Shown here piece after piece: positions 4,770-53,842 of a stretch of 64,000 bases of DNA (its first letter is position 1; every line of letters starts with the position of its first letter). A program made the translations under genes and the position numbers. Under the pieces are notes generated by a model, which did no database searches, was not told the DNA's origin, and saw nothing but the letters and a program-made list of their open reading frames with translations. The stretch spans positions 258,039-322,038 of the forward strand of contig JBAXRQ010000001.1 of NCBI GenBank assembly GCA_037131105.1, read 5' to 3'. This DNA is from a bacterium. Its GTDB lineage: Bacteria > Patescibacteriota > UBA1384 > CAILIB01.

Positions 4770-4940
4770 CTTCGCCGCTTTCTGCCCGAGCGCAGAAGCG
4801 CGAGCGCATTTGAGAACCCACGGTTCTCAACGAAAGCCTTTGGCTTTCTGCTCTCCTCCACGGAAACCCTCCCCGGTTAAGTGCTTCGCACCGCTTCGCG
4901 ATCGAACCTTCCGACGTTCAAGTCCCTTCCATAATTACTG
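4770..4940. repeat. REP-like composite element (copy E2)
   Basis: Contains the gagaacccacggttctc palindrome, ctcctccacggaaaccctccccggtt and gttcaagtccc. Confidence 0.5.
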
Positions 4941-5046
4941 AAGAAACAAAGAGAGGCCCCAGAAAAATTTTGAGACGTACTCCGGATGAGTTCAGTGAGA
5001 ACCTTCCTTGAGTCGATCAGTTTTCTGGGGCCTCTCTTTGTTTCTT
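4940..5046 (+). repeat. fold-back element F2
   Basis: Perfect 26-bp arms aagaaacaaagagaggccccagaaaa / ttttctggggcctctctttgtttctt flank the conserved ttttgagacgta...ccttgagtcgatcag core. Confidence 0.5.
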
Positions 5047-5064
5047 TGGTGCGCCCGGAGGACT
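5047..5064. repeat. attL-like direct copy of tRNA-Arg(TCG) 3' end
   Basis: tggtgcgcccggaggact matches 8261-8279 (tggtgcgcccggagggact) at 18 of 19 positions. Confidence 0.55.
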
Positions 5065-5200
5065 TTCACGTCGCTTCGCTCATCGGGAACCCACGGTTCC
5101 CGACGGATTTGCTAAGGACAGATAAATCCTGCCCTCCTCCACGGAAACCCTCCCCGGTTTCCGACCCTTCGGACGTTCAAGTCCCTCCGTTCTTTGACAA
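5065..5200. repeat. REP-like composite element (copy E3)
   Basis: Contains gggaacccacggttccc and cctccacggaaaccctccccggtttccgaccc. Confidence 0.5.
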
Positions 5201-5354: not shown

Positions 5355-6920
5355 TTATTTCAACGAGAGCGCAAGAATAGCCTCGGTGATGCGTCCAATA
5401 CTTATCGGATCGTGCCAGTCTACTTTGGTAACTGTAATCTGATGCTTTCTCCATGCGCCAATCCCTCTCTTATGATCAGCTATTTCGTCGTCGACGGTTA
5501 TGGATGCAAAGAAGGCCCGACAAAAATATTGGCGGATGATCGGGTTGGCTTTTAAAAAGGCCTTACCAACATCCAAGCTTTGAGCCAGCGCTAAGGCCCT
5601 GTCTCTTCTACCGGTGATGATAGCTAACCGTTTTTCAGCTTCGGCTATAACTTCGGTTGCCTGCGCAATGTCTTTAGCAATTCGTTTCTGGTCTTTCTTT
5701 AATAAGACTCCCGGAACCAGTTTTTCGTAGTAAGCCTGCAGAAGATTCTCCTGGGCAACCTCAAGCTTAGTAAGTCGTTGTTTCTGCTGCTTGACGTCGT
5801 CTTCGGCATAGCGTTGTTCCTCGCGTAATTCTTCATGTATTTTTTGTGCCAACTCGATATGCTCAGTCTCAGAGAATGAGAGCTTATTGAGTGTTGTAAT
5901 TACTACCTTTTCCAGTGAGTCAGCGGGGATGTAGGGTTGCGTACAACCTGCATGCTGTCGATTTATGCAGAAAAAGTAGGAGTAACGGCGTTTCGTTATA
6001 GTATGACAAAGACGACGATTGCACCTGGCACAGATAAGGAGACCAGCAAGACAGTGGAAATGCTTGCGGTCCTTACGTCTGGAGCCAGAATGACTGAGTC
6101 TAACTGCCTGGACGGCTGCGAAGACCGCGGGAGTAACAAGCGGCTGATGGTTTCCCTTATATTCCACACCGTTATAGCTGACGTAGCCGATATAGTAGCG
6201 GTTACACAGTAGGCGAGCCAACCCGCTCCTGCTTATCGGATGAGCAGGTGAGCGGTTGGTAGCTCGCATCCGAAAGCCTCGCCTAGTGAGTTCCGTGAGG
6301 AGATGCCGATCCGTGTAATCCCCGGTGGCGTAGCGTTCAAGGGCGAAGCGTGCAAAATGAGCCCTATCCGGGTCGGGGATTACCGTGCGTATTTCTCGTC
6401 GGTTTGCTCGCTCTATCACGTTAAGGTAGCCAATCGGGGCCTGGAAGGGAGTACCACCCTGCTTGGCCTTCTCAGTCGCCCCTTTCAAGGCCTCAGCCGC
6501 TAGGTTTCCACTATAGAACTCTGCGATAGTGGCCATAATGCCGTGGAGCAGTCTGCCTGAGGGGGTTTCATCGATGTTCTCCGTAACCGAGACCAGTTGG
6601 GCTCCGCCTTTTTGAATGGCCAGGCCGATCACGACGTCGTCATGGAGATTCCTCGCTAGACGATCAAGTTTATGAACAATAACGTAGTCGAAGGCCTTTT
6701 TTTCAGAAAGATCACGAAGCAACAGTTGTAGTGCGGGTCGAGCAGCCGAGCGGGCACTTTCTCCCCGGTCAACGTATTCCCTGATACTTTTAGCTCCAAG
6801 ATCCTGAGCCTTGCGTTTGCAGGCTTCCCGCTGCGCAGGTATGGAGAACCCGTCGCGGTTGGTATTGCCCTTTGTCGCCTGGTCGAGCGTAGACACTCGA
6901 AGATAGATGGCTACTTTCAT
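5355..6920 (-). CDS. large serine recombinase (resolvase/invertase N-domain + recombinase + zinc-ribbon)
   Basis: N-terminal MKVAIYLRVSTLDQ catalytic-Ser motif. 521 aa. C-terminal Cys cluster. Confidence 0.85.
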   Translation of the reverse strand: MKVAIYLRVSTLDQATKGNTNRDGFSIPAQREACKRKAQDLGAKSIREYVDRGESARSAARPALQLLLRDLSEKKAFDYVIVHKLDRLARNLHDDVVIGLAIQKGGAQLVSVTENIDETPSGRLLHGIMATIAEFYSGNLAAEALKGATEKAKQGGTPFQAPIGYLNVIERANRREIRTVIPDPDRAHFARFALERYATGDYTDRHLLTELTRRGFRMRATNRSPAHPISRSGLARLLCNRYYIGYVSYNGVEYKGNHQPLVTPAVFAAVQAVRLSHSGSRRKDRKHFHCLAGLLICARCNRRLCHTITKRRYSYFFCINRQHAGCTQPYIPADSLEKVVITTLNKLSFSETEHIELAQKIHEELREEQRYAEDDVKQQKQRLTKLEVAQENLLQAYYEKLVPGVLLKKDQKRIAKDIAQATEVIAEAEKRLAIITGRRDRALALAQSLDVGKAFLKANPIIRQYFCRAFFASITVDDEIADHKRGIGAWRKHQITVTKVDWHDPISIGRITEAILALSLK

Positions 6921-9365: not shown

Positions 9366-9697
9366 CCATCCTGGTCCATGGTATAGCCGATGCCATGAAC
9401 AGTACGGATGAGACGCCGACCAAAGGGTCGGTCGACTTTGTCTCGCAGATGCTTGATGTGAACGTCAACAAGATTGGAAAAGGGATTGGTGGCGTCGTCC
9501 CAGAGCTGCTCAAGGATCATTGTCCGGGTTACTACCCGGTCTTGGTTGCGCATGAGGTACTCCAAGAGGTCGAAGTCTTTGCGGCGAAGCCTGATTGGGG
9601 TGTTGCTACGGCGTACTGTTCGCCTGGCCGAATCAATTACTAGGTCTACGCAACAGATCATGGCGGAAGCTGCATGGTGGGGAGGGGGAATGAGCAT
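9362..9697 (-). CDS. stand-alone OmpR/PhoB-type winged-helix DNA-binding protein
   Basis: trans_reg_C-like sequence FDLLEYLMRNQDRVVTRTMILEQLWD...TVHGIGY. No receiver domain. Confidence 0.5.
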   Translation of the reverse strand: MLIPPPHHAASAMICCVDLVIDSARRTVRRSNTPIRLRRKDFDLLEYLMRNQDRVVTRTMILEQLWDDATNPFSNLVDVHIKHLRDKVDRPFGRRLIRTVHGIGYTMDQDG

Positions 9698-9774
9698 ATA
9701 TCATCTATGAAAATAATACGTCCTCATGCTAGTACAGAAATATTAACTTTTCATTAACTTTTTGCCTGTGTGCG

Positions 9775-10347
9775 CTACGGCAAAAACAGGGTTGTCCGGA
9801 TGACGCTCCAGTAGTGGACAATGACAACGATAAACCCAGCATTAACTAAGGGAAATATCAGCAGGTTCTCAAACCAGTGACCGGTCTCAATGCGAAGCCC
9901 CTGGAAGGGGTGCGGAGGGATGCCGAACATATGCTGGTTGGGGAACAGTAGCGGCACGCCTTCTACCGTGAGCATGTCCGCCAGTATGTGGCTCCCGTAG
10001 GCGATGGCGAAGGCAATGAAGACATAGTGCCTGCCTAGTCCCCAATACAGCGGTGCCAAGAGCAGGAGTCGATACATGCCATAGCAGACTATGCCGTAGC
10101 CCAGGAATGAGTGAGTCAGGTTACGGTGGGCAAGGAAGGGGTTCACTAGTTCGCCGCCGATATGACCGAAAGGAAGGGCGTTCCAGAGCCGGGATCCAGG
10201 CTGGTCGATGTCGGGAAGTAGTGAACCGATGCAAGAGACCACCAATACTCCCGCTAGAGAGGCGGGCTGGTAATGCGGCGAAGTAGCGATAAGAAAAGAG
10301 GCAAGCCCGGCGGTCATTCCAATGACCTGGTGGGTCTTACCGGTCAT
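9775..10347 (-). CDS. membrane-bound metal-dependent hydrolase (YdjM-like)
   Basis: 190 aa, His-rich, 3-4 TM helices. Resembles the LexA-regulated YdjM family. Confidence 0.45.
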   Translation of the reverse strand: MTGKTHQVIGMTAGLASFLIATSPHYQPASLAGVLVVSCIGSLLPDIDQPGSRLWNALPFGHIGGELVNPFLAHRNLTHSFLGYGIVCYGMYRLLLLAPLYWGLGRHYVFIAFAIAYGSHILADMLTVEGVPLLFPNQHMFGIPPHPFQGLRIETGHWFENLLIFPLVNAGFIVVIVHYWSVIRTTLFLP

Positions 10348-12101
10348 TACATTCTCTCGGGAACCGAAATACCAAGCAGGCTAAGGCCGAGCTCCAGCTG
10401 CTGCTGGGTGAGCCAGGCCAGAGTCAGCCATGACCGCTTGATAGCCGGGTCCGGCTGGTTGGCGATATGTGAGTTCTGGTAGAACCTATTGAACTCCTGG
10501 GCCAGACTGAAGAGGTGGTCGCAGAGAATGTGAGGGGCGTTACCGGCCTGGGTGTCGATGAGGACCTGGGGAAAACGGGTGAGCGACAGTATGACGGCAT
10601 GCTCAGCCTCTGTGGCAGGTGCCAACAGTCCTTCAGACGAGTTCACCTCTTCCCCGACATGCCTGAAGATCGACTTGATACGGACGGTAGTGTATACGAG
10701 GTAGGGTCCGGTCTTGCCCTCGAAGCTGACGAACTTATCGATATCAAAGATATAATCGGAAGACGAGTTGGTGCTGAGATCGCCAAACTTAAGGGCGGCC
10801 AGACCTACCTTCTCAGCAATTTCATGCTGCTCTTCTTCCGAGTAATCCTTGGCGGCTCCTATCTCGTGCAATCGCTGCAGGGCTTTCTCCTGGACCTCTC
10901 CGATGAGGTCCTGCAGCTTCATGACGCCTCCGGCCCGGGTCTTAAAAGGCCTTCCATCAGGGCCGTTCATGGTACCGAATCCTAGGTGCTGCAAGACCAT
11001 ATCCTCAGGGGCGATGCCGGTCTGGCGGGCAGCGGCAAAGACCTGCTGGAAGTGAAGGCTCTGGCGCTGGTCAGCTACTACTAGTGATCGCTTCACACCG
11101 TCAGTAGCCCGATCTAGGATGGTGGCAAGATCTGAGGTGCTATAGAGGTAGGCGCCATCTGACTTCTCAAGAAGAAGCGGAGGAAGCTCCTTACCGTCAA
11201 CGGGATGAAGGTGGACCACTAGGGCTCCTTCACTTTCGACCGCCAGGCCGCGCTGCTTGAGGTCGGCGATCATGGTGCCGATGAGGTCATGGTAATGGCT
11301 CTCACCGTTCCATAGGTCAAAATGCACGTCGAGCTTCTCCATCTGGACCTTGATGGCACTTACCGAGATATCCACGAAGTGCTGCCAGAGGGCACGGTAG
11401 CCGGGTCGTCCCTGCTGCAGCTCGTAGGTGGCCTGCAAGGCGTCTTTCTTGGCCTGCTCATTCTCCTTGCAGCGGGCGGCAGATCGCGGGTAGATGGCCT
11501 CGAGGTCGTCGAGGGTGACCGGAGACTCGGTAGGGTAGGGGCCGGTGAGCTGCTCGTCGAAGTAGGGGAGCTCCGGCTGGTCGCGGCGGATCTCGCTGAT
11601 GATCATGCCCATCTGGGTGCCCCAGTCGCCCATATGGATATCTCCCTGGATATTCGCACCAAGCAGGACGTAGAGCCGGCGCAGGCTTTCACCGATGACT
11701 GACGGCCGAAGATGGCCGATGTGCAGGGGCTTGGCTACGTTCATGCCTCCGAAGTCGACGACGGTCTTCTGGTCCTTTACATTCGTGAGAGAGGAGTAAT
11801 CGGCGTCCTTAGTGGCGAGCTTGGCCTGGTCGGCTAAGAACTGCTTGTCCAGGCGAATATTAATGAAACCGGGCCCGGCAATGTCGAGGGTGAACTCACT
11901 ACAGCCAGTGAGGGTGTCGACGACCTTCTGGGCGACCTCGCGGGGAGGCATGCCAAGGGATTTGGCGCAGGAGAGGGCGTCATTGCATTGGTAATCGGCA
12001 AGCTCCGGACGGTCGCTGGGCGTAACGCTGCCTACTTGGGCTCCTAAGCTGGCAAATGCTTCGCTAAAAAGGTTGCTGAGGTATGATTCGATGGAGTGCA
12101 T
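10347..12101 (-). CDS. argS: arginine--tRNA ligase
   Basis: 584 aa with a class-I HIGH motif (PLHIGHLR) and ArgRS N-terminal and anticodon-binding architecture. Confidence 0.9.
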   Translation of the reverse strand: MHSIESYLSNLFSEAFASLGAQVGSVTPSDRPELADYQCNDALSCAKSLGMPPREVAQKVVDTLTGCSEFTLDIAGPGFINIRLDKQFLADQAKLATKDADYSSLTNVKDQKTVVDFGGMNVAKPLHIGHLRPSVIGESLRRLYVLLGANIQGDIHMGDWGTQMGMIISEIRRDQPELPYFDEQLTGPYPTESPVTLDDLEAIYPRSAARCKENEQAKKDALQATYELQQGRPGYRALWQHFVDISVSAIKVQMEKLDVHFDLWNGESHYHDLIGTMIADLKQRGLAVESEGALVVHLHPVDGKELPPLLLEKSDGAYLYSTSDLATILDRATDGVKRSLVVADQRQSLHFQQVFAAARQTGIAPEDMVLQHLGFGTMNGPDGRPFKTRAGGVMKLQDLIGEVQEKALQRLHEIGAAKDYSEEEQHEIAEKVGLAALKFGDLSTNSSSDYIFDIDKFVSFEGKTGPYLVYTTVRIKSIFRHVGEEVNSSEGLLAPATEAEHAVILSLTRFPQVLIDTQAGNAPHILCDHLFSLAQEFNRFYQNSHIANQPDPAIKRSWLTLAWLTQQQLELGLSLLGISVPERM

Positions 12102-13679: not shown

Positions 13680-13830
13680 TTTTTCTTTGGAGCGGGAGGG
13701 GAGTCGGACGTCGGAGCGAAGCTCCTCCTAGGAAACCTGCGGTTTCCTTAACGCTTTCTTCGAAAGCTACCTTCCTCCACGGAAGAACTCCCGGATTGCA
13801 GCATCTGCCTTCGGCGGACGGGCAAGCTTG
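13680..13830. repeat. REP-like composite element (copy E4)
   Basis: Contains aggaaacctgcggtttcct and cttcctccacggaagaactcccgg. Confidence 0.4.
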
Positions 13831-14074
13831 CACATGGAAAAAGCGGCATCCCCCAGATGCTGCTTATCCCTCCCCCTCCCTGTCCGACTCCCACTCATGA
13901 GTACAAAGAAAAACCCTCCGCAAGCGGAGAGTTTTTCTTTGGAGCGGGTAGTGGGAGTCGGACCCGCGTCTTCTCCTTGGAAGGGAGGTGTAATACCGTT
14001 ATACGATACCCGCGTACCTTACGGTTATAGCACAGAGCGGGGGCCTGGTGAAGCCCCCGTCCGCAGGCGTAAGG

Positions 14075-16514: not shown

Positions 16515-16640
16515 CGCATGACATCTCACCGCTTCGCTTTTGAGAACCCACGGTTCTCAACGCTCACTTTGTTCGCTGCTCTCCTCTGCGGAACCTTGGC
16601 AGGCTCCGACCCTCCGCTAGTTTGAGTCTGCGCTTCGTTA
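16515..16640. repeat. REP-like composite element (copy E5)
   Basis: Contains gagaacccacggttctc and ctcctctgcggaacc. Confidence 0.45.
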
Positions 16641-45889: not shown

Positions 45890-46907
45890 GAATTCAATAC
45901 CTAATGCACCACCTGTCTGCTACAACTGGTGCATATGAAACACCTAACATCCTACGAGAGAGAACAGATCGCCTACTGGAAGAGCCAAGGCCTTGGTGTG
46001 CGGGACATCGCGGGAAAGGTGAGCCGTGACCACTCGGTGGTGAGCCGGGAACTGAGGAGAAACAAAGGTCAGCTCTTTCCCTACGAGGCGGCAAACGCCC
46101 AGTACTACGCTGAGCGCAGAAGGAGGATCGCCAACCGCCCGAAGCTTTCCAAGCACCGGGAACTTAAGGAGTGGGTACATGACCAGCTCATGCAAAAGTG
46201 GAGTCCGGAACAAATTGCGGGCCGGCTCAAAGAACACCCTCCCGTCCACCTTGCGGGACTCACCATTAGCCACGAGGCCATCTACCAGTGGATCTACGCC
46301 GAGTCTCCCCGGGGCGCTCCCTGGCTCTACCACCACTTGCGCAGAAAGCACGTTGAGCGGCGGCCAAAGTTCGGTAGGAAGAAGAGAAACCAGGTTAAGA
46401 TACCGGAGCTGGTGCCCATTTCGGAGCGTGGGGAACTAGAGGGGTTCGGCCACTTCGAGGCCGACTCTGTAGTCGGCAAGAACCACAAGCCAGGCCTTTC
46501 CGTCCACTACGAGAAAGCCACTCAGTGGACAAAGCTGCACAAGTTAGAGAGCATGAAGGCTGAGGAGACCCTGGCTGCGCTGGAGGGCACCCTCGCCGAC
46601 CTGCCCCTGGGGTTCGCGGCCTCGGTCACGTTCGACCGGGGCGGCGAGACCGCCCTCCACTACCGCCTGAGGGAGTCCTACGGCGTCGCCACCTACCACT
46701 GCGACCCGTACAGCCCCCACCAGAAGGGAGGGGTAGAGAACGTGAACGGCCTGGTCCGCCAGTTCTTTCCCAAGGGCACCGACTTCCGGTATGTTAGTCC
46801 CGAGACGGTCGCCCTGGTAGAGGATCTCCTCAACAACCGGCCCAGGAAGAAACTGAACTACCAAACCCCTAACGAAGCCATGAGTGGTGCATTAGATTCT
46901 TGAATTC
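45890..46907 (+). mobile_element. IS30-family insertion sequence
   Basis: Terminal inverted repeats gaattcaatacctaatgcaccac (left) and gtggtgcattagattcttgaattc (right). Single DDE transposase. Confidence 0.8.
45929..46903 (+). CDS. IS30-family transposase
   Basis: N-terminal HTH (YEREQIAYWKSQGLGVRDIAG), WSPEQIAGRLK motif and an rve DDE domain. Confidence 0.85.
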   Translation: MHMKHLTSYEREQIAYWKSQGLGVRDIAGKVSRDHSVVSRELRRNKGQLFPYEAANAQYYAERRRRIANRPKLSKHRELKEWVHDQLMQKWSPEQIAGRLKEHPPVHLAGLTISHEAIYQWIYAESPRGAPWLYHHLRRKHVERRPKFGRKKRNQVKIPELVPISERGELEGFGHFEADSVVGKNHKPGLSVHYEKATQWTKLHKLESMKAEETLAALEGTLADLPLGFAASVTFDRGGETALHYRLRESYGVATYHCDPYSPHQKGGVENVNGLVRQFFPKGTDFRYVSPETVALVEDLLNNRPRKKLNYQTPNEAMSGALDS

Positions 46908-47547
46908 ACCATATCCTGCCTATGCTGATTTCCAAGACTATAAGGCTGAAATAGTGGATACGGAAGAGGAGATACTCCGTAAGAGTTTCCAGTATTTAGA
47001 CTGGGCAAATCAGTATCTTGAGCACGTCTCCAGTAATGAAGATGTAAGTAAGGTTATCCAATCTAGTCTTATGCACCTAAAGATAGTAACTCTCTACTTT
47101 ATTGGGCCGGGACTTTCTGCAGCAGTCATCCCTTTAACTCACATTGAAATTCCTGGATTATTTTCTGTAACAGAGAGTCCCTATGGGGTGCGAGACATTC
47201 GTACAAGCTCTAATAACTCGAAGTTGCGTCATGTTAAGGGTAAGACCCAACCATACTGCATACTAAGGATGGTTGCCGAACAATACCAGAGAAATACTTG
47301 GAAAGGGGAGCGTCCAGACAGGATAGAGCTTGCCTATGAGGATATTATTGCCCGATTGAAGGATGCCGAATACTGTTCTTTCCCCATTAAGAAGGACATT
47401 GCCAAACTGCCGTATGACCATCTAACCGACTTATTGTACGAGGTAAAAAGGATAATCTCATTTACTGAAACCCAGGCAAAAGTAACCCAAGCGAATAAAA
47501 AAGTCCGTCTTGTATTCCTGATCCCCAAAAGCGGAGCAGGGAAGTAG
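46900..47547 (+). CDS. hypothetical protein (TTG start inside IS30 right repeat; probably 5'-truncated)
   Basis: 215 aa, AT-rich. Its start overlaps the IS terminal repeat. Confidence 0.3.
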   Translation: MNSPYPAYADFQDYKAEIVDTEEEILRKSFQYLDWANQYLEHVSSNEDVSKVIQSSLMHLKIVTLYFIGPGLSAAVIPLTHIEIPGLFSVTESPYGVRDIRTSSNNSKLRHVKGKTQPYCILRMVAEQYQRNTWKGERPDRIELAYEDIIARLKDAEYCSFPIKKDIAKLPYDHLTDLLYEVKRIISFTETQAKVTQANKKVRLVFLIPKSGAGK

Positions 47548-47904
47548 AGTAGTTCCGCCACTTCCGCCACTGAAATGGATAGCCTTTTATAGGTTATTTT
47601 TTGAATTCTTGACAAAGTGTAATCCCGCTATAGAGGTGGAGTTAGTCGTAAGGACTCTACTAGCCGGAGTGACAGGAAGACTATAAGCAGACCTGTCTAG
47701 GGAGCTGGCCGACCGGAATCAACTATACGGATACCTATCACGAACCGAATAATCTTCTTCTTTTCAGGATTTCTTCTTCTACCGCACCGTACTCGCTACC
47801 GCTCATACGTTGCTGGGACTGGATAACCTAGGATGGGATTCGGGACGGAGGGGAAACGGCTAGGAGTGAAGGGAGGGCCTCCATCTTACCCAAAGCGAAG
47901 CCCT

Positions 47905-48072
47905 ATGCGTCGACAAGTCAACAAACAGACTAAACAACTTAGGGTTTCGGTAGAGCTCCATAAAAAGTTGCGGCTTGAGGCTGCAAAAAAGTGTGTTCCT
48001 ATGGGTGAAATTCTTGTGGAAGTGCTTGAGGGCACATACCTCGATAGTCGTAACTTAAAGGCGAAGAAATGA
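47905..48072 (+). CDS. ribbon-helix-helix (CopG/Arc-like) protein
   Basis: QLRVSVELHKKLRLEAAKKCVPMGEILVEVLE fits an RHH beta-alpha-alpha fold. Confidence 0.4.
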   Translation: MRRQVNKQTKQLRVSVELHKKLRLEAAKKCVPMGEILVEVLEGTYLDSRNLKAKK

Positions 48073-48266
48073 AGGTTAAAACTACGTCATCTAATCTTGA
48101 CCCTCAACGGATTGTAAAAGATGCCGGTCAAGTTTTAGATGAAATGGTATCAGGTCTCTTGGATGAACTTGAGATTCCGCAAAACGATAGAGAGAGATTC
48201 ATATCTGATCTAAAACGAATGATTAATATTTCCTTTGATGAATATTTTGATCAGCTAGGTAGTTAA
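48069..48266 (+). CDS. small acidic hypothetical protein
   Basis: 65 aa. Overlapping stop/start with the flanking genes indicates an operon with the recombinase. Confidence 0.35.
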   Translation: MKVKTTSSNLDPQRIVKDAGQVLDEMVSGLLDELEIPQNDRERFISDLKRMINISFDEYFDQLGS

Positions 48267-48270
48267 TTAT

Positions 48271-49875
48271 ATGGTATACGCCTTCATCTACACTCGGGTA
48301 AGTAGCGAACGTCAGGTTACAGAGGGAAACGGCACTCAGAGCCAAGAACAGCGTTGTCGCTCATATGCCAAATTTCAAGGCTATCAGGTGAAGTTGGTTG
48401 TCCCTGATGATGGGGTTTCCGGTGCAATATTAAATCGGCCAGGAATGAGGAAGCTACTAGAAGAGCTACGAACATTCTCAGGTGAAAAGGTGGTTATTAT
48501 TGATGATATCTCCCGTTTAGCAAGGGATATTAAAACCCATATTGAACTTCGTGCGGCAATTGCTACTTGTGGGGCAACTTTGGAATCTCCTAATATGAAG
48601 TTTGAAGAAACGGCGGTAGGTGAATATATAGAAATGATAATGGCTGCAACCGCTCAATTTCAGAGAAAAGGAAATAGGGAGCAGGTAATTAATCGCCAAC
48701 GTGCCCGCCTTGAAATGGGGTATTGGACGTTCCATGCTCCCCTTGGGCTACATTATGAAAAGCATCCTCTTCATAAAAAGCTTATCACACCAGATCAGAC
48801 AGCTTACAAATTAGCCGAAGGCCTTGAGCGGTATGCTATTGGGTCAATATCCACAAAAAGGGCACTTGCTACACACCTGATTAAAAATGGCTTCTTTGTA
48901 GATGCTCCGTTGGATATTATAGAAAAAAAGCTAACGAGAGTCTTTGATAACTTAAGCCTTTATGCGGGTTATATTGAGTATCCTGCGTGGAACATTGAGA
49001 AAGTAAAGGGTCGTCATACGGCCATAATAGGTGATGACATATATAACCTATTATTGGGAAGAGAGGGTAATCTTCCTGAGCGGCTAGGGAATAGGACACA
49101 ACCTAACTCAGAGTTTATTCTTCGTAACTTTGTACGGTGTCCGCATTGTATGTATGGCTTTACTGCATCTTATGCCAAACCAGGGAAAAAGTTTCCACGG
49201 TATTATTGTCGTAATCAAAAATGTGCCTACTACGGTCGGACTGTACGGAGAGATATTCTGACTGATAAGTTTGAGGAGCTTCTTAAGTCCCTAGAGGCAA
49301 AAGATGGGCTAATACAGCTTCTAGAGAGACTTAGTAAGGAGGAGTGGACTAAAAAACTAGAGAGCTGGGAAAGAACCGGTAAATTATCTGAGCAAAGAGT
49401 GGAGGAATATTCTAGGGAATTGGCGAGAGCTACTAAGCGCTTGTTAAAAACTACGAATGAGCATGTTGCAGAAGAGATTGAGATAGAAATTGATAAGCTG
49501 CGGGCACAACAGAAAGGTCTTGAAATAGACGTGAGTAAATACCGTCAGTCTCCTCCTAACTTCGAAGAGGCTTTGGGGCGTGTTAGCACTCTTCTTAAGA
49601 GCCCTTACTCCTATTGGAAATCAGGTTCAGATGAACAAAAAAGAACGGTTCACAATATAGTGTTTACCGTTCCCCCTTCCTATGACATAACTAAAGGAGT
49701 TTACACCGTTAGTTATGCGCTTCCATACCAGGTTTTAAATACTCTGAAAGAAGATAGATCTCGGGTGGTGGACCAGAGCCTAAAAACTTGGAACACCTTT
49801 TTCAAGTATGTGGAGGAGTGGGAGCCGAAGCTGGAAGAGATTTACGGCAATTTAGACTACTCAAATGGCTTTTAA
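48271..49875 (+). CDS. large serine recombinase
   Basis: N-terminal MVYAFIYTRVSSERQ catalytic motif, recombinase domain, Cys-rich zinc ribbon (CPHC...CRNQKC) and coiled coil. Confidence 0.85.
   Translation: MVYAFIYTRVSSERQVTEGNGTQSQEQRCRSYAKFQGYQVKLVVPDDGVSGAILNRPGMRKLLEELRTFSGEKVVIIDDISRLARDIKTHIELRAAIATCGATLESPNMKFEETAVGEYIEMIMAATAQFQRKGNREQVINRQRARLEMGYWTFHAPLGLHYEKHPLHKKLITPDQTAYKLAEGLERYAIGSISTKRALATHLIKNGFFVDAPLDIIEKKLTRVFDNLSLYAGYIEYPAWNIEKVKGRHTAIIGDDIYNLLLGREGNLPERLGNRTQPNSEFILRNFVRCPHCMYGFTASYAKPGKKFPRYYCRNQKCAYYGRTVRRDILTDKFEELLKSLEAKDGLIQLLERLSKEEWTKKLESWERTGKLSEQRVEEYSRELARATKRLLKTTNEHVAEEIEIEIDKLRAQQKGLEIDVSKYRQSPPNFEEALGRVSTLLKSPYSYWKSGSDEQKRTVHNIVFTVPPSYDITKGVYTVSYALPYQVLNTLKEDRSRVVDQSLKTWNTFFKYVEEWEPKLEEIYGNLDYSNGF
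49765..49875 (+). repeat. recombinase 3'-end repeat R0 (within gene)
   Basis: gtggtggaccagagcctaaaaacttggaacacc... is repeated at 50475 and 51383. Confidence 0.7.
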
Positions 49876-49880
49876 TTCAA

Positions 49881-50336
49881 TTAGATACCATCCTGGCTTT
49901 CCTGGTACTGTCCGAATACTTTTTCGTATACAAGCGAAGCGGTATCCAGTCGGCCTTGAGCAGCATATTTGTCGTCGGTGCCAGCGTTTTCAAGCTCAGT
50001 CCTGAAGTTCTCTTTAAAGTTTTCGAGAGCATCGGCCAAAAGGCTGATCTCTTGGTGGGAGAGTGCTTCGTCATCACCTAGCTTCAGCCCGATTTCACCG
50101 ATAGTGCTAAGTTTTCTTGCTACGCTAGCTTTTTCGCTGGAAGTATCTACGCCATCTTCACGCTGCTGTCTAAAGTATTCCCTTTCTTTCGTCATTAGCT
50201 CCTTTTGCATTCGGTCCAGCGCAGCATACATAGTCGTTTTTTCCTTCTCAGAATATAAACCCTGAACTTCCGGTGCCTTAACTGCCTCGTTGGCTGTCAC
50301 TTTAATATCTTCTGGTTGATATCCTTCTATACTCAT
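49881..50336 (-). CDS. hypothetical protein (cassette A cargo)
   Basis: 151 aa, acidic, coiled-coil-like. Confidence 0.45.
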   Translation of the reverse strand: MSIEGYQPEDIKVTANEAVKAPEVQGLYSEKEKTTMYAALDRMQKELMTKEREYFRQQREDGVDTSSEKASVARKLSTIGEIGLKLGDDEALSHQEISLLADALENFKENFRTELENAGTDDKYAAQGRLDTASLVYEKVFGQYQESQDGI

Positions 50337-50474
50337 AAAGATCTTTTAGATTGAATTATGCTGTTATATTACCATAAAAGTATTTATAAGATCCTAGATA
50401 CCAAAAAACAGCCTGTTAGGCTGCTCTGGGTTCCAAGTGTCAGTTTGGTGTCGCCGGATTAAACCTGGAAAAAT

Positions 50475-50594
50475 CGTGGTGGACCAGAGCCGAAAAACTT
50501 GGAACACATTCTTTGAGTACGTAACAGATTGGGAGCCGAAATTAAGGCAGGTTTACGACTATGAACCTAAAGCAAGGACCGATCCACCAGGATG
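50475..50594 (+). repeat. recombinase 3'-end repeat R1 (gene remnant, in-frame to stop)
   Basis: Encodes VVDQSRKTWNTFFEYVTDWEPKLRQVYDYEPK.... Compare the recombinase C-terminus VVDQSLKTWNTFFKYVEEWEPKLEEIYGNL. Confidence 0.7.
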
Positions 50595-50699
50595 AGTTGT
50601 GTTGTTTAATGGATCAACGTACCTGAAAAATTCACAATAAAAATTGCCCCGACAGGCTGCTATGCAGTGATCTGACGGGGCGGTGGGTGCGATTTGGGC

Positions 50700-51032
50700 T
50701 TAGTACTTTGGCTCGTACTCGCCGACCGACGCTACAGTCTGCTCGAATAGTACGACCTTCTTCCTGAGTACCATGCGGGCGACCCTGGCCCAGCCCTCTG
50801 CGTCGCTGACGCTAAGATGGGGATTGCTTTCATCCATGCAGACGAAGCCTTGCTTCAGGTCCGGGACCTTCAGGCCGACGAGATCGAGGAACTCGGTGAG
50901 CGAGACCGCGTTCTGCGGATGCATCTCCGGGCTACGCAGGCTGACCAGGATCTGGTCTGGCCGCATCCTGTCCCTCATCGAGACATAGACTGTTTCCGCT
51001 GCCTTGGCTTCTTCGGTTGTAAAGTGCTTCAT
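50700..51032 (-). CDS. hypothetical protein (cassette B cargo)
   Basis: Start MKHFTTEE preceded by SD AGGAGGAAGG. 110 aa. Confidence 0.45.
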   Translation of the reverse strand: MKHFTTEEAKAAETVYVSMRDRMRPDQILVSLRSPEMHPQNAVSLTEFLDLVGLKVPDLKQGFVCMDESNPHLSVSDAEGWARVARMVLRKKVVLFEQTVASVGEYEPKY

Positions 51033-51169
51033 ATCCTTCCTCCTTGGAATGAGATTCAGCGCGAATATAACCCGAATTCGTCCAATTGTCAAGGAGTATA
51101 CGAAAAAAGCCTAGCAGAAAGTGTAGATTACACGTAATAGTTAGACTGTTTTCTACTCTGTAAAAAGTG

Positions 51170-51350
51170 GTGGAGGTGGGAGAATCGCACGTGGCTCTCT
51201 TGCCGCTCGGGTTGGGAACCCTCGCTGGCTCGCTCCCAGGAAACCCACGGTTTCCTTGACGCCGCTGGTGCGGCTACCTTCCTCCACGGAAAAACTCCCG
51301 TTTTCCCGACCCCTTTCCCCGTGTGACTCTCTTTCCTGAAAACTTTACCA
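51170..51350. repeat. att-like motif + REP composite element (copy E6)
   Basis: gtggtggaggtgggagaatcgcacgtggctc followed by ctcgctcccaggaaacccacggtttcc and cttcctccacggaaaaactccc. Confidence 0.5.
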
Positions 51351-51384
51351 ACATAAAAACAGCTCTGAGAGCTGTGTTTATGTT
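51350..51384. other. conserved hairpin at cassette boundary
   Basis: aacataaaaacagctctgagagctgtgtttatgtt, identical to 52649-52683. Confidence 0.6.
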
Positions 51385-51487
51385 GGTGGACCAGAGCTTA
51401 AAAACTTGGAACACTTTTCTTGAGTGCGTATGGGATTGGGAGCCGATGCTGAGGGAGATCTATGGGGATTTGAATCAAGAGGGCTGA
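51383..51487 (+). repeat. recombinase 3'-end repeat R2 (gene remnant)
   Basis: Encodes VDQSLKTWNTLLECVWDWEPMLREIYGDLNQEG*. Confidence 0.7.
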
Positions 51488-51531
51488 CTTGAATGCACTA
51501 AATGGTGTAAAGTTCGTACATTCACAATACG

Positions 51532-52521
51532 GTGAATTTGCACGTATCACCCTGTGAAGACGTGCCAAGCTTTTGGTGTTATTCTATACACATGCAAGAG
51601 TTTCCCTATCTCAATACCAAAATTCCAGTTCAACACTCAGCCAAGGAGCTGAGTACTTTCGTCGAAGGGTTTCCTGGCTTTAAATTCTGCATTTATCTCG
51701 CCCACAAGGACGAAGAGGGATGGGAGCGCTCGACCAGCAGGGCTTACATGAACCGCCTATTCCCCCGTTTCCTCTATGTTCCAGTAGACATCCTCAAGGA
51801 AGATGTTGATGAGCTACGAGCCGTCTATTCTCTTGTAACTGTAAGTCCGGAGATTGTTGCCATAAACCAGACCCAGCCGCACAAGAGCAATGCGGTTATG
51901 CAAGAGTTCCTAGAGGAAGGAGATATCCCGGCAAACGTCGACGCCATAGTAAAGGATGAGGGAGGAATGCTGGTAGCGTATGACCTTAACGGACCGTCGT
52001 TCATCCGATGGTTCAAGGACGAGGCGGGCGGGTTCGAGTCGGCAACTGTGCTGCTCGTAGGGGTAGGCGGTGTCGGCGAGCCTATCGCGCGGGCCTTGGC
52101 CTACGAGCACACTGCATGCGTCTACCTTATCGACCCTGTTAGTAAGGTTGAGCTCCAGGCAGAGCTTTCCGAGCTTATGGACGTGGAATACTACACCCTG
52201 CAGCACGACCTGGATCTGCCGGAGACAGTTGAGCGCCTTGTGCTCATCAACTGCGCCGGCAAGGAGGGCGTAGAGGGCCAGTCAAAGGTTGAGGAATGGC
52301 TTACCAGATATAAGGAAAAGGGGTTCATTTTTGTTGATCTCAGGCCTCACTTGGATATTGATATTGTAAAGAAGGCGGAGTCACTAGGGTGGAAGGCTTT
52401 TACGGGTCACGGAATGAATGCCTACAACGATCATGTGCTGGTATCTAAGATTGCGGAGCTGATCGGGGGGACATCGCCAAAATTCGAAGAGTTCAGAAAA
52501 GCAGTGGCAGGGGTCTCTTAG
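51532..52521 (+). CDS. shikimate/quinate dehydrogenase-like NAD(P)-binding protein (cassette C cargo)
   Basis: NQTQPHK resembles the AroE NvTiPhK motif. Rossmann GVGGVG. NCAGKEG. 329 aa. Confidence 0.45.
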   Translation: MNLHVSPCEDVPSFWCYSIHMQEFPYLNTKIPVQHSAKELSTFVEGFPGFKFCIYLAHKDEEGWERSTSRAYMNRLFPRFLYVPVDILKEDVDELRAVYSLVTVSPEIVAINQTQPHKSNAVMQEFLEEGDIPANVDAIVKDEGGMLVAYDLNGPSFIRWFKDEAGGFESATVLLVGVGGVGEPIARALAYEHTACVYLIDPVSKVELQAELSELMDVEYYTLQHDLDLPETVERLVLINCAGKEGVEGQSKVEEWLTRYKEKGFIFVDLRPHLDIDIVKKAESLGWKAFTGHGMNAYNDHVLVSKIAELIGGTSPKFEEFRKAVAGVS

Positions 52522-52524
52522 GAT

Positions 52525-52650
52525 TCGGTGGGAGAATCGCGCGTCGCTCGCTTCCGTTCGGCATAATGCCTCACTGCTCGCTCCCAGGAAACCCTCCCCG
52601 GTTTCCGACCCTTCCGACTGTGCAACTCTCTTTCCTACAAACCCAACCAA
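52525..52650. repeat. att-like motif + REP composite element (copy E7)
   Basis: ggtgggagaatcgcgcgtcgctcgc...ctcgctcccaggaaaccctccccggtttccgaccc. Confidence 0.5.
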
Positions 52651-52683
52651 CATAAAAACAGCTCTGAGAGCTGTGTTTATGTT
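52649..52683. other. conserved hairpin (second copy) at array end
   Basis: aacataaaaacagctctgagagctgtgtttatgtt followed by ggtgga. Confidence 0.6.
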
Positions 52684-52689
52684 GGTGGA

Positions 52690-53057
52690 GGTGGCGAGAG
52701 TCGCACTCGCGTCCAAAGTGGTTGCGGCAGCGGTTCTACATGCTTAGTCCCGTTCAATTTAACCTCCCCTGAGCGCGGGACGACTCTGGGATCGGCTTCT
52801 ACCGTAAGCTTATCAGCGACGACGGTAGCTGTCGCTGGGGCATCCTCACTATATGTCGCTAAGCCTCTCCGGTCAGGAGGCAGAAAGGTAAGCGGCGATC
52901 GTTATTAGGCGAAAGCTGGTGCGAAAGTCGCAGGAGTCAGCAAGCTGGCTACAGCGGACTTAACGCGAGCAAATGCAGTTGCACTTGTGGTGTGTGTACA
53001 TAGTTTAACGAGGGCAAATACACATCCTCGGCATGCTGGTACTGCGACAGGACCACC
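52690..53057 (+). ncRNA. structured RNA, candidate RNase P RNA (rnpB)
   Basis: ~365 nt with no credible ORF and many hairpins. UUAGUCCCG (52744) is complementary to CGGACUUA (52961), as in the P4 helix. ACAGCGGACUUAACG resembles CR-V. GAAAGGUAAGCGGCG resembles CR-II. The terminal segments GGUGGCGAGAGUCGC / GCGACAGGACCACC could pair as P1. Confidence 0.3.
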
Positions 53058-53200
53058 CTGTCGAATAAATACACCCCCATGTTGTTAAGCTCCAAGTGCC
53101 TGCTGATCATAGCACGAACATGCCCTTTTGTCAATTGACCAACAGGTTGGGAGATGGTACTACTAGGGCGTATCGATTCCGTATTGAAAGGGGCGTGGAT

Positions 53201-53581
53201 ATGGGCGCACATAGTGCGACGCTGTCGATTGATGGGGCAATTGCAGCTGCCTACTTGGCCTTGTGGCTGATGGTATGGCTGATCTGCCTGTTCGAGGCAT
53301 TCTGGCTTTTTCGTTACTGTCTTGCCAGGAAAAACGGATGTATGGAAAGCCGCGAGTACCGGCTGTACTCCAACCAGGTACTGATGTCCTGGCTGATGAC
53401 GTTCGGGTCGGCGGCAGCGGTAACCCTGCTCTTTTGGGTGGTGGCTCCGGTAAGGAACGTTGCCATACTGTCCGCGCAGTCACTGTGGTACCAGGTGGCG
53501 GTAATGACTGTGCAGGTACTGATCCTGGCACATGTCGGCAACGATCCGCCCATGATCAGACAATACGGAGGTGAACCTTGA
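53201..53581 (+). CDS. hypothetical membrane protein
   Basis: Start at MGAHS with SD AAAGGGG. 3-4 TM helices. Confidence 0.35.
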   Translation: MGAHSATLSIDGAIAAAYLALWLMVWLICLFEAFWLFRYCLARKNGCMESREYRLYSNQVLMSWLMTFGSAAAVTLLFWVVAPVRNVAILSAQSLWYQVAVMTVQVLILAHVGNDPPMIRQYGGEP

Positions 53582-53842
53582 TAGCCTTGCTCGGAACTAT
53601 GTATGTGTGCGTCATTACGCATTGGGAGATTTCCGTGTCGGTGCTGGTCTGTCTTGGGACGGCGTATGTCGTTAAGGATGTTCCCCGGCAGTATCGTCGC
53701 TAGGCCGAGAGTGATTTGGGGTATACCACGAGGAGGGTGAACATGATTCCGATCTGCTTTGAGTTGAGGCTGTATGAAGACGATGATGGCTATTATGCCT
53801 ACAGAAGGAGAAAGCTGAAGAAGCGACGACCTTCTACTGGAG

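Follow-up and report, generated by a model that had tools for sequence, protein, structure and literature searches.

The 3′ end of a bacterial tmRNA gene as the predicted attachment site of a family of large serine recombinases with an intragenic attP

Together with SmpB, transfer-messenger RNA (tmRNA) frees ribosomes that have stalled and marks the incomplete protein with a degradation tag. The characterized large serine integrases (phiC31, Bxb1, A118 type) have the attachment site attP outside the integrase open reading frame (ORF) and target protein-coding genes or intergenic sites. The tmRNA gene is a classic hot spot at which islands integrate, and displaced 3′ fragments and relics in tandem are described beside it (Williams, 'Traffic at the tmRNA gene', cited in PMC4383910), and the 2014 Islander paper stated that serine integrases were not known to target tRNA or tmRNA genes (PMC4383910). 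Archaeal tyrosine integrases of the SSV1 type ('suicidal', class I) carry attP within the int gene and target tRNA genes, an arrangement that was called exclusive to archaea in 2021 (PMC8371274). Among the tycheposons of Prochlorococcus, which are associated with tRNA and tmRNA genes, the cited part of the preprint counts 27 elements out of 937 with a large serine recombinase (bioRxiv 10.1101/2020.12.28.424599). Here, we describe a stretch of 64 000 nucleotides (the window; contig JBAXRQ010000001.1 of GenBank assembly GCA_037131105.1, positions 258,039–322,038, Patescibacteriota) in which the gene of a large serine recombinase (48271–49875) lies 2.8 kb from a tmRNA gene whose 3′ end is the predicted attB of the recombinase family. 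Coordinates are counted from the first nucleotide of the window.

The locus was compared with each of these systems. With the classic tmRNA islands, as far as the cited passage describes them, it shares the full tmRNA architecture, an insertion at the 3′ end that spares the gene, and 3′ fragments and tandem relics downstream; those islands use tyrosine integrases with an attP that carries a copy of the tmRNA 3′ segment, whereas here the enzyme is a serine recombinase and the crossover would fall in the last 7 nt. With the phiC31, Bxb1 and A118 type, the window protein shares a length of ∼530 aa, an N-terminal resolvase domain bearing the serine motif R-V-S, a putative zinc-ribbon region, short att sites and a small core, but in that type attP lies outside the ORF and no tRNA or tmRNA targets were known in 2014 (PMC4383910). 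The SSV1 type is similar in having the att site in the integrase ORF, a tRNA-type target and an integration that alters the integrase product. An SSV1-like integrated form, with the int ORF interrupted at the core and its remainder at the far end, was also found (locus L002; 55 of 90 loci; loci L008 and L019; window position 51384). The archaeal enzymes are, however, tyrosine recombinases with a gene broken into two large parts, whereas here only the last ∼35 residues would be swapped and the ORF runs into antisense tmRNA; the window protein is a serine recombinase, and the resemblance is one of analogy, not of membership. Tycheposons, in the cited part of their description, likewise show remnant arrays, partial tRNA and tmRNA fragments beside the gene, and small cargo-carrying units; they are mostly tyrosine-recombinase elements of another host lineage, and intragenic attP or tail swapping is not described in that part. 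The likeness to an integron is a resemblance only, a recombinase gene being followed by a row of single-ORF units with a repeated site. Integrons have the tyrosine recombinase IntI, folded single-stranded attC and a separate attI, none of which is present here: the recombinase is of the serine type and the repeated sites consist of a 7-nt core and a coding tail, not attC hairpins. No description of the arrangement of this family was found in the open-access literature; databases such as TIGER may already hold the islands.

The tmRNA gene and its flanks comprise the following features.

52683–53078, minus strand: tmRNA (ssrA), one-piece, 396 nt (Rfam RF00023 and ARAGORN)
53106–53134, minus strand: tmRNA promoter of the sigma-70 type, TTGACA, 17 nt, TG-TATGAT (consensus match only)
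52615–52682, minus strand: native flank on the 3′ side of the tmRNA gene, forming the B arm of attB and including an intrinsic terminator hairpin at 52658–52674 (terminator scan and alignment with locus L087)

A sequence-only reading of the window had placed an ORF-free structured RNA at 52690–53057 and proposed RNase P RNA as its identity. The gene is present almost as placed, its true span being 52683–53078, and it is a full-length tmRNA on the minus strand. The only long RNA returned by an Rfam scan of the whole window was tmRNA, with RF00023 matching the minus strand at 114.1 bits (gathering cutoff 47, E = 8e-44) over model positions 1–374 of 374. ARAGORN independently returned the identical span, with an internal frame that opens at a GCA resume codon and encodes a 25-aa tag, ATAFARVKSAVASLLTPATFAPAFA, with a PAFA-stop ending followed by a second stop codon. 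The promoter matches the consensus at 11 of 12 positions, has an extended −10 element and lies ∼28 nt upstream of the mature 5′ end; the terminator, a hairpin and then a T-run, stands directly past the CCA end.

For comparison, four related tmRNAs (loci L002, L086, L087 and L088) were located using the recombinase and the neighbouring helix–turn–helix (HTH)–HSP20 gene as anchors, the synteny of the latter with the tmRNA being conserved in all four. Each scored 102–122 bits with RF00023. Across the five sequences, compensatory changes on both sides were found at 28 of 78 consensus pairs. The acceptor strands (5′ GGGGGUG and 3′ CACCUCCACCA) are common to all five, and the 7-bp acceptor stem, formed by alignment positions 1–7 and 414–420, is invariant, with a G3–U pair in 5/5. 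The T-arm (397–413), the GCAUGCCGAG motif and the resume region are likewise common to the five, and the 3′ end ACCA is encoded. The PK1–PK4 regions were aligned by Rfam with low posterior probability and several non-canonical pairs; RNAalifold is unable to predict pseudoknots. The tag region (52980–52900, minus strand) is long and ends in PAFA in place of the commoner LAA. Both the frame and the P-A-F-A-stop ending are kept in all five tmRNAs, and the conserved ending suggests a lineage-specific degradation signal. On these comparisons, 52683–53078 of the minus strand can be identified as the ssrA gene of the cell, an ordinary tmRNA gene with its own predicted promoter and terminator.

The case for a plus-strand RNase P RNA of reduced form consists of resemblances seen by eye to CR-II, CR-V and a P4-like pairing. 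RNase P families gave no match in the whole window at the gathering score (zero matches for RF00010 and RF00011) and none even at E ≤ 10 in 49500–53200 on both strands, which leaves the CR-II and CR-V likenesses unsupported. The proposed P4, TTAGTCCCG (52744–52752) with CGGACTTA (52955–52962), is an imperfect helix of 7–8 bp with a perfect core of 5 bp; complementary 8-mers with at most one mismatch number 21 in the region against a shuffle mean of 22.6, that is, chance level. In the tmRNA sense the two segments belong to the tag reading frame and to the conserved GACUAAGCAUGUAG motif, and are unpaired in the consensus structure. All of the plus-strand motifs are antisense, and the 'unusually short 3′ domain' arose because a tmRNA was read backwards. 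With a 114-bit full-length tmRNA on the opposite strand, complete with tag, covariation, promoter and terminator, the chance of an RNase P RNA here is next to nil, and the RNA is not worth pursuing as a novel or reduced one; a routine Rfam or ARAGORN scan suffices to name the tmRNA. The alternative of 'a different RNA altogether', which the same reading had allowed, was borne out by both programs.

The recombinase was identified from its catalytic domain.

48271–49875, plus strand: large serine recombinase, 534 aa (Pfam Resolvase, 295 homologues, repeat family D1)

The PF00239 Resolvase domain covers residues 4–150 (E = 1.2e-23), and the catalytic serine motif R9-V10-S11 is invariant across 21 homologues. 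Zn_ribbon_recom (PF13408) scored 22.5 bits, under its cutoff of 25.3, and the PF07508 Recombinase domain was unreported for this protein; PF07508 and PF13408 are precomputed for many of the 295 homologues. The gene contains, at 49766–49772 and 37 codons before its stop, the core TGGTGGA (site A, in the attP configuration), which is the antisense of UCCACCA-3′, the last 7 nt of the tmRNA. Beyond this core the C-terminal tail of the recombinase, VVDQSLKTWNTFFKYVEEWEPKLEEIYGNLDYSNGF, is intact. The core recurs with tail codons at 50477 and 51384 (repeat family D1), so that at all three positions it is followed by a recombinase C-terminal coding segment.

In relatives of this recombinase the same core joins the ORF to a tmRNA gene. 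Most of the close homologues (among the 295) have a conserved tail, V-D/E-x-x-G-E-S-W-H-x-F...W; homologue P0002 instead ends in LVEVARVSLASK, i.e. in antisense tmRNA. In the recombinase frame, the antisense strand of the window tmRNA 3′ end encodes VVEVARVALASK..., from which the end of P0002 differs by one substitution. At locus L002 the ORF of P0002 (8001–9587) overlaps a minus-strand tmRNA of 116 bits (9511–9904), which is followed by the HTH–HSP20 gene as in the window. Fusions at the same tmRNA point also occur at loci L085 and L088, with a more distant serine recombinase, and at L086, with a truncated ORF.

The family was then sampled at 90 loci, 80 from a scan with one genome per species and ten from viral contigs. 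[quoted passage not shown] This count is probably an underestimate, because ARAGORN missed the tmRNAs of L002 and L086–L088 that Rfam found. The junctions all fall at the encoded CCA end, homology to the query ends at about residue 500, and A-rich sequence just left of TGG is a P-arm feature across the family. Loci L008 and L019 have an orphan tail at the opposite end of the island, 6–7 kb upstream of the recombinase. The ten relatives on viral contigs are distant ones, two of them fused to tRNA-Ala, with no close relatives among them. A metagenome scan with the tmRNA 3′-end pattern gave a single match, the fusion case L085, and no empty sites. Family members were seen in Armatimonadota, Patescibacteria, Alphaproteobacteria, Planctomycetota and some viral contigs.

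Because the recombinase ORFs of relatives are fused to antisense tmRNA at exactly TGGTGGA, comparison identifies the tmRNA 3′ end (7 nt and the adjacent terminator) as the predicted attB of this large serine recombinase family. The suggestion that the RNA is an att target of the tRNA/tmRNA type was thus a sound one. The same comparison places the predicted attP of the family inside its own recombinase gene, ∼35 codons before the stop, and since 55 of the 90 ORFs end in antisense tRNA or tmRNA at the CCA, integration would swap the last ∼35 residues of the enzyme. In the proposed mechanism the recombinase would catalyse attP × attB recombination at the short core, giving the order flank, core, orphan tail, cargo, recombinase N-terminal part, core and tmRNA. 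The conserved tail V-D-x-x-G-E-S-W-H-x-F...W would be replaced by residues encoded by the antisense strand of the tmRNA gene, and the mature tmRNA sequence would be left intact. Such a tail exchange may have a regulatory role.

Two further sites in the window bear on this mechanism.

52683–52689, strand not assigned: site F, core TGGTGGA at the tmRNA 3′ end, with the B arm on the left and the tmRNA on the right; predicted unoccupied attB (L087 junction)
51282–51390, strand not assigned: site D, second native flank and terminator (B arm), core and tail C3; predicted true attL (BLAST, repeat family D2, L087 alignment)

The core of site F is the fusion point in L002, L085, L086 and L088. Locus L087 has an unoccupied site, ...aactttaccaacataaaaacagctactagagctgtttttatgt followed by TGGTGGA and ggtggcgag..., in which a terminator directly abuts the core and tmRNA; because this empty site has it, the hairpin abutting the window core is taken as the native tmRNA terminator, the B arm of attB. 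The B arm occurs twice in the window (52581–52689 and 51282–51390), ∼82% identical over ∼110 nt (a 111-nt BLAST alignment, repeat family D2), and both copies align to the L087 flank, over 71 nt for site F and 64 nt for site D. Judged by these alignments, site D (core at 51384) is probably a genuine attL and site F (52683) an intact, unoccupied attB, 1.3 kb away from it. Sites A (49766) and F (52683) are direct repeats on the same molecule, 2.9 kb apart, and an active enzyme would be expected to remove the intervening 2.9 kb, leaving a predicted recombinase that ends in ...SRVVEVARVALASKVVAAAVLHA. The arrangement of an attP-type site A and an empty attB at site F was seen identically in a second sample, despite the deletion expected of an active integrase.

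Between the recombinase gene and the tmRNA the window holds three cargo ORFs and two orphan tails.

49881–50336, minus strand: cargo ORF 1, 151 aa, no Pfam family, low GC content like the recombinase gene
50476–50595, plus strand: orphan tail C2 (VVDQSRKTWNTFFEYVTDWEPKL...), from the core at 50477–50483 (site B) (tail hidden Markov model, HMM, E = 5e-10)
50700–51092, minus strand: cargo ORF 2, 130 aa, no Pfam family (ORF list, Pfam)
51383–51487, plus strand: orphan tail C3 (LVDQSLKTWNTFLECVWDWEPMLREIYGDLNQEG), from the core at 51384–51390 (tail HMM, E = 1.9e-7)
51532–52521, plus strand: cargo ORF 3, 329 aa, no Pfam family (ORF list, Pfam)

Tail C3 is 68% identical to recombinase residues 499–529 (tblastn), and the three tails (recombinase, C2 and C3) are 62–65% identical, with an invariant VDQS-KTWNTF..WEP motif. 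Contig L101 of a second sample is 100% identical to the window over 50154–53654 (3.5 kb); the array is thus not an assembly artefact. A search of the protein database for orphan tails returned two small proteins, one on L101 (the same locus from another sample) and one at a new junction on contig L100. At this junction (L100 255–370; ENA ERZ27299992 k141_547250) gcaaaaaT is followed by TGGTGGA and ccagagcc..., and the tail, LVDQSLKTWNTFFDIMFEWEPKLRQIY..., is of the window's type. The cargo beyond it, an HTH gene and a PLD-like nuclease gene, is unlike that of the window. The left arm of site B is neither recombinase-coding nor a B arm, and the same holds for site C (51168); a third copy of the native terminator was considered for the left arm of site B and rejected, the match being of 13 nt only. 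An A-run beside the core is all that site B, site C and the L100 junction have in common in their left arms. No remnants of the recombinase N-terminal part were found in 49876–52700 (tblastn with 30 homologues, E ≤ 10).

The array is best read, in our view, as decayed tandem islands or their relics. It could also have arisen from single-ORF cassettes without a recombinase, captured serially at the intragenic site or at the tmRNA end to give an integron-like array of a serine recombinase. Each unit would then carry an attP-like site (a short A-rich left arm, core and tail) and each capture would give the enzyme a new tail; an intact recombinase tail, as seen here, is what such a model predicts. 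The units are uniformly small (49766–50476, 50477–51167 and 51384–52526; 711, 691 and 1143 bp); each holds a single ORF, lacks recombinase remnants and has the core as its boundary. The divergence of the three tails points to independent acquisitions. The unrelated contig L100 would provide a fourth unit with other cargo and the same A-run before the core, and A-rich sequence at this position is, as noted above, found family-wide. Several observations speak against cassettes: the left arms of the units share the short A-run but no extended half-site, the equal low GC content of the recombinase and cargo ORF 1 suggests that they arrived jointly, and the native B arm at site D makes this an ordinary attL, not a cassette junction. 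Nor was such an array seen at the other loci, of which ∼100 were examined. Large serine recombinases are, moreover, not known to recombine attP-like sites with each other. Since site D appears to be an ordinary attL and no other locus has such an array, relics are favoured over cassettes, whose serial capture we consider unlikely.

The remaining repeats of the array were assigned as relics of a second type.

51168–51341, plus strand: relic U′ (site C), core and putative decayed tmRNA 3′ end (51168–51191) joined to a U-body (51214–51341; E = 1.7e-30)
52527–52640, plus strand: relic U″, putative decayed tmRNA 3′ end (52527–52543) joined to a U-body (52547–52640) (repeats D7, D13 and D2; nhmmer E = 6e-17)
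590–681, 4811–4933, 5060–5193, 13706–13801, 16540–16629, 51214–51341 and 52547–52640, all in the same orientation: U-body copies, with a further one at 11366–11490 of locus L089

The sequence-only reading had reported that ∼25 nt from the 5′ end of the RNA are duplicated in the array. The duplication stands: the copy at 51168–51191 matches at 22 of 24 positions with one gap, and that at 52527–52543, which is without TGGTGGA, at 14 of 17. The segment is, however, the 3′ end of the RNA, comprising the 3′ half of the T-arm, the 3′ acceptor strand and CCA. The U-body is ∼100–130 nt long, with a hairpin GGAAACC-N4-GGTTTCC and a motif CCTCCACGGAA.AACTCCCG. At least seven copies occur in the window, in one orientation, each 50–150 nt downstream of a minus-strand tRNA (Arg, Gly, Pro) or tmRNA gene. 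The copy in the relative L089 also follows tRNA genes, and the neighbouring protein there is only ∼52% identical. The U-body could represent one terminus of a miniature integrative element, or else a module for processing or termination in tRNA flanks. Directly beside the copy at 13706 lies a pseudo 3′ end of the adjacent tRNA-Gly (13688–13712), tggagcgggaggggagtcgg against the real tggagcgggtagtgggagtcg at 13940, with the same AAAGAAAAA flank. A pseudo tRNA-Gly end next to a U-body has the apparent signature of an insertion that displaced a tRNA 3′ end, and the copies at 51168 and 52527 are similarly read as displaced, decaying tmRNA 3′ ends. An insertion of this second type would bring a fresh 3′ end and terminator and displace the old 3′ end with whatever is joined to it; because such an insertion would renew attB in this way, an attL and an attB could coexist 1.3 kb apart.

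The copies at 51168 and 52527 might alternatively be decayed recombinase tails of the 'VEVAGESWH' type, in which case all of the array repeats would derive from serine-recombinase elements alone. The in-frame VVEVGESH... of U′ does resemble the MVEVAGESWH tails of homologues P0003, P0005 and P0009. The tail HMM, on the other hand, detected neither U′ nor U″, and the DNA match to the tmRNA T-loop (TCGCAC) is equal to that to the tails. A U-body follows each copy, as it does downstream of tRNA-Arg, tRNA-Gly and tRNA-Pro genes, and the pseudo tRNA-Gly 3′ end beside a U-body has no tail-like reading frame. We regard an origin from tails as quite improbable.

Several points weigh against an account that combines the tmRNA identity, the attB and attP roles and the relic history. 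The exact crossover dinucleotide within TGGTGGA is suggested by the limits of shared sequence only, and the att sites and recombinase activity are predicted from junction sequences. Several intact-tailed family members, such as those at L006 and L011, lie in large chromosomal contigs with no tRNA or tmRNA gene within 10 kb, so tail swapping may not be universal in the family. The 534-aa recombinase of the window, though chromosomal, keeps an intact tail, a non-canonical configuration for the integrated state, and the left island boundary was not found. Given the odd left arms of sites B and C and the lack of N-terminal remnants in 49876–52700, the decay of three full islands needs three deletions, each ending at or beside a core. 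Finally, the starts of U′ and U″ also resemble homologue tails, so their origin from the tmRNA 3′ end is probable, not certain. With these points taken into account, the combined account is, with high confidence, the best explanation of the locus as a whole.

The recombinase gene lies in a block of distinct composition that adjoins an insertion sequence.

46900–50480, strand not assigned: low-GC block comprising cargo ORF 1, the recombinase gene and, upstream of it, three small ORFs (GC 41–46% against 52–60% around it)
45890–46907, plus strand: IS30-like insertion sequence with a 324-aa transposase (HTH_38 and rve_3 matches)

This block is the most recently acquired DNA. Its right end is site B and its left boundary adjoins the IS30-like element, the terminal inverted repeats of which (GAATTCAA...CTAATGCACCAC) were read from the sequence. 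The left edge of the block yielded no att junction, and the IS30-like insertion may have erased the left junction of the low-GC element. Directly upstream of the recombinase, at 47833–48266, are two small ORFs, the first of which (79 aa) gives a weak match of the HicB type (E = 0.0045). The pair may encode a regulator or directionality factor of the recombinase element. A fourth relic of a recombinase 3′ end was considered at 46900–47050, where the spacing of P-Y, F, K and V-D fits by eye, and was rejected at ∼4 bits and E ∼ 10 in the profile HMM. A second large serine recombinase gene lies on the minus strand at ∼5523–6920, ∼26% identical to the family studied here (tblastn E to 1e-25), and two U-body copies (4811–5193) are found just downstream of it.

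The RNA is an ordinary tmRNA of a well-known family, and the recombinase family is moderately interesting. A wider reading would join a widespread bacterial serine recombinase family, docking at CCA ends through an intragenic attP and exchanging its tail, with possible cassette capture in the window; we put it forward tentatively and with some doubt. On that reading the archaeal 'suicidal' integrases would have their serine-type, bacterial equivalent in this family, the tail exchange could serve as an inherent switch between integrated and free states, and the window site may have captured single-gene cassettes without a recombinase to form an integron-like array. About 60% of the 90 loci combine a serine recombinase and an intragenic att site with the 3′ end of a tRNA or tmRNA gene, in contrast to the earlier statements on serine integrases (PMC4383910) and on the restriction of such an arrangement to archaea (PMC8371274). 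If they are not already catalogued, these enzymes would be compact integrases with a near-universal and highly conserved attB, the acceptor end and CCA. A recombinase ORF that runs into an antisense tRNA or tmRNA gene would give a rule for annotating island boundaries, and the family would offer a natural case of integration rewriting the C-terminus of the recombinase itself.

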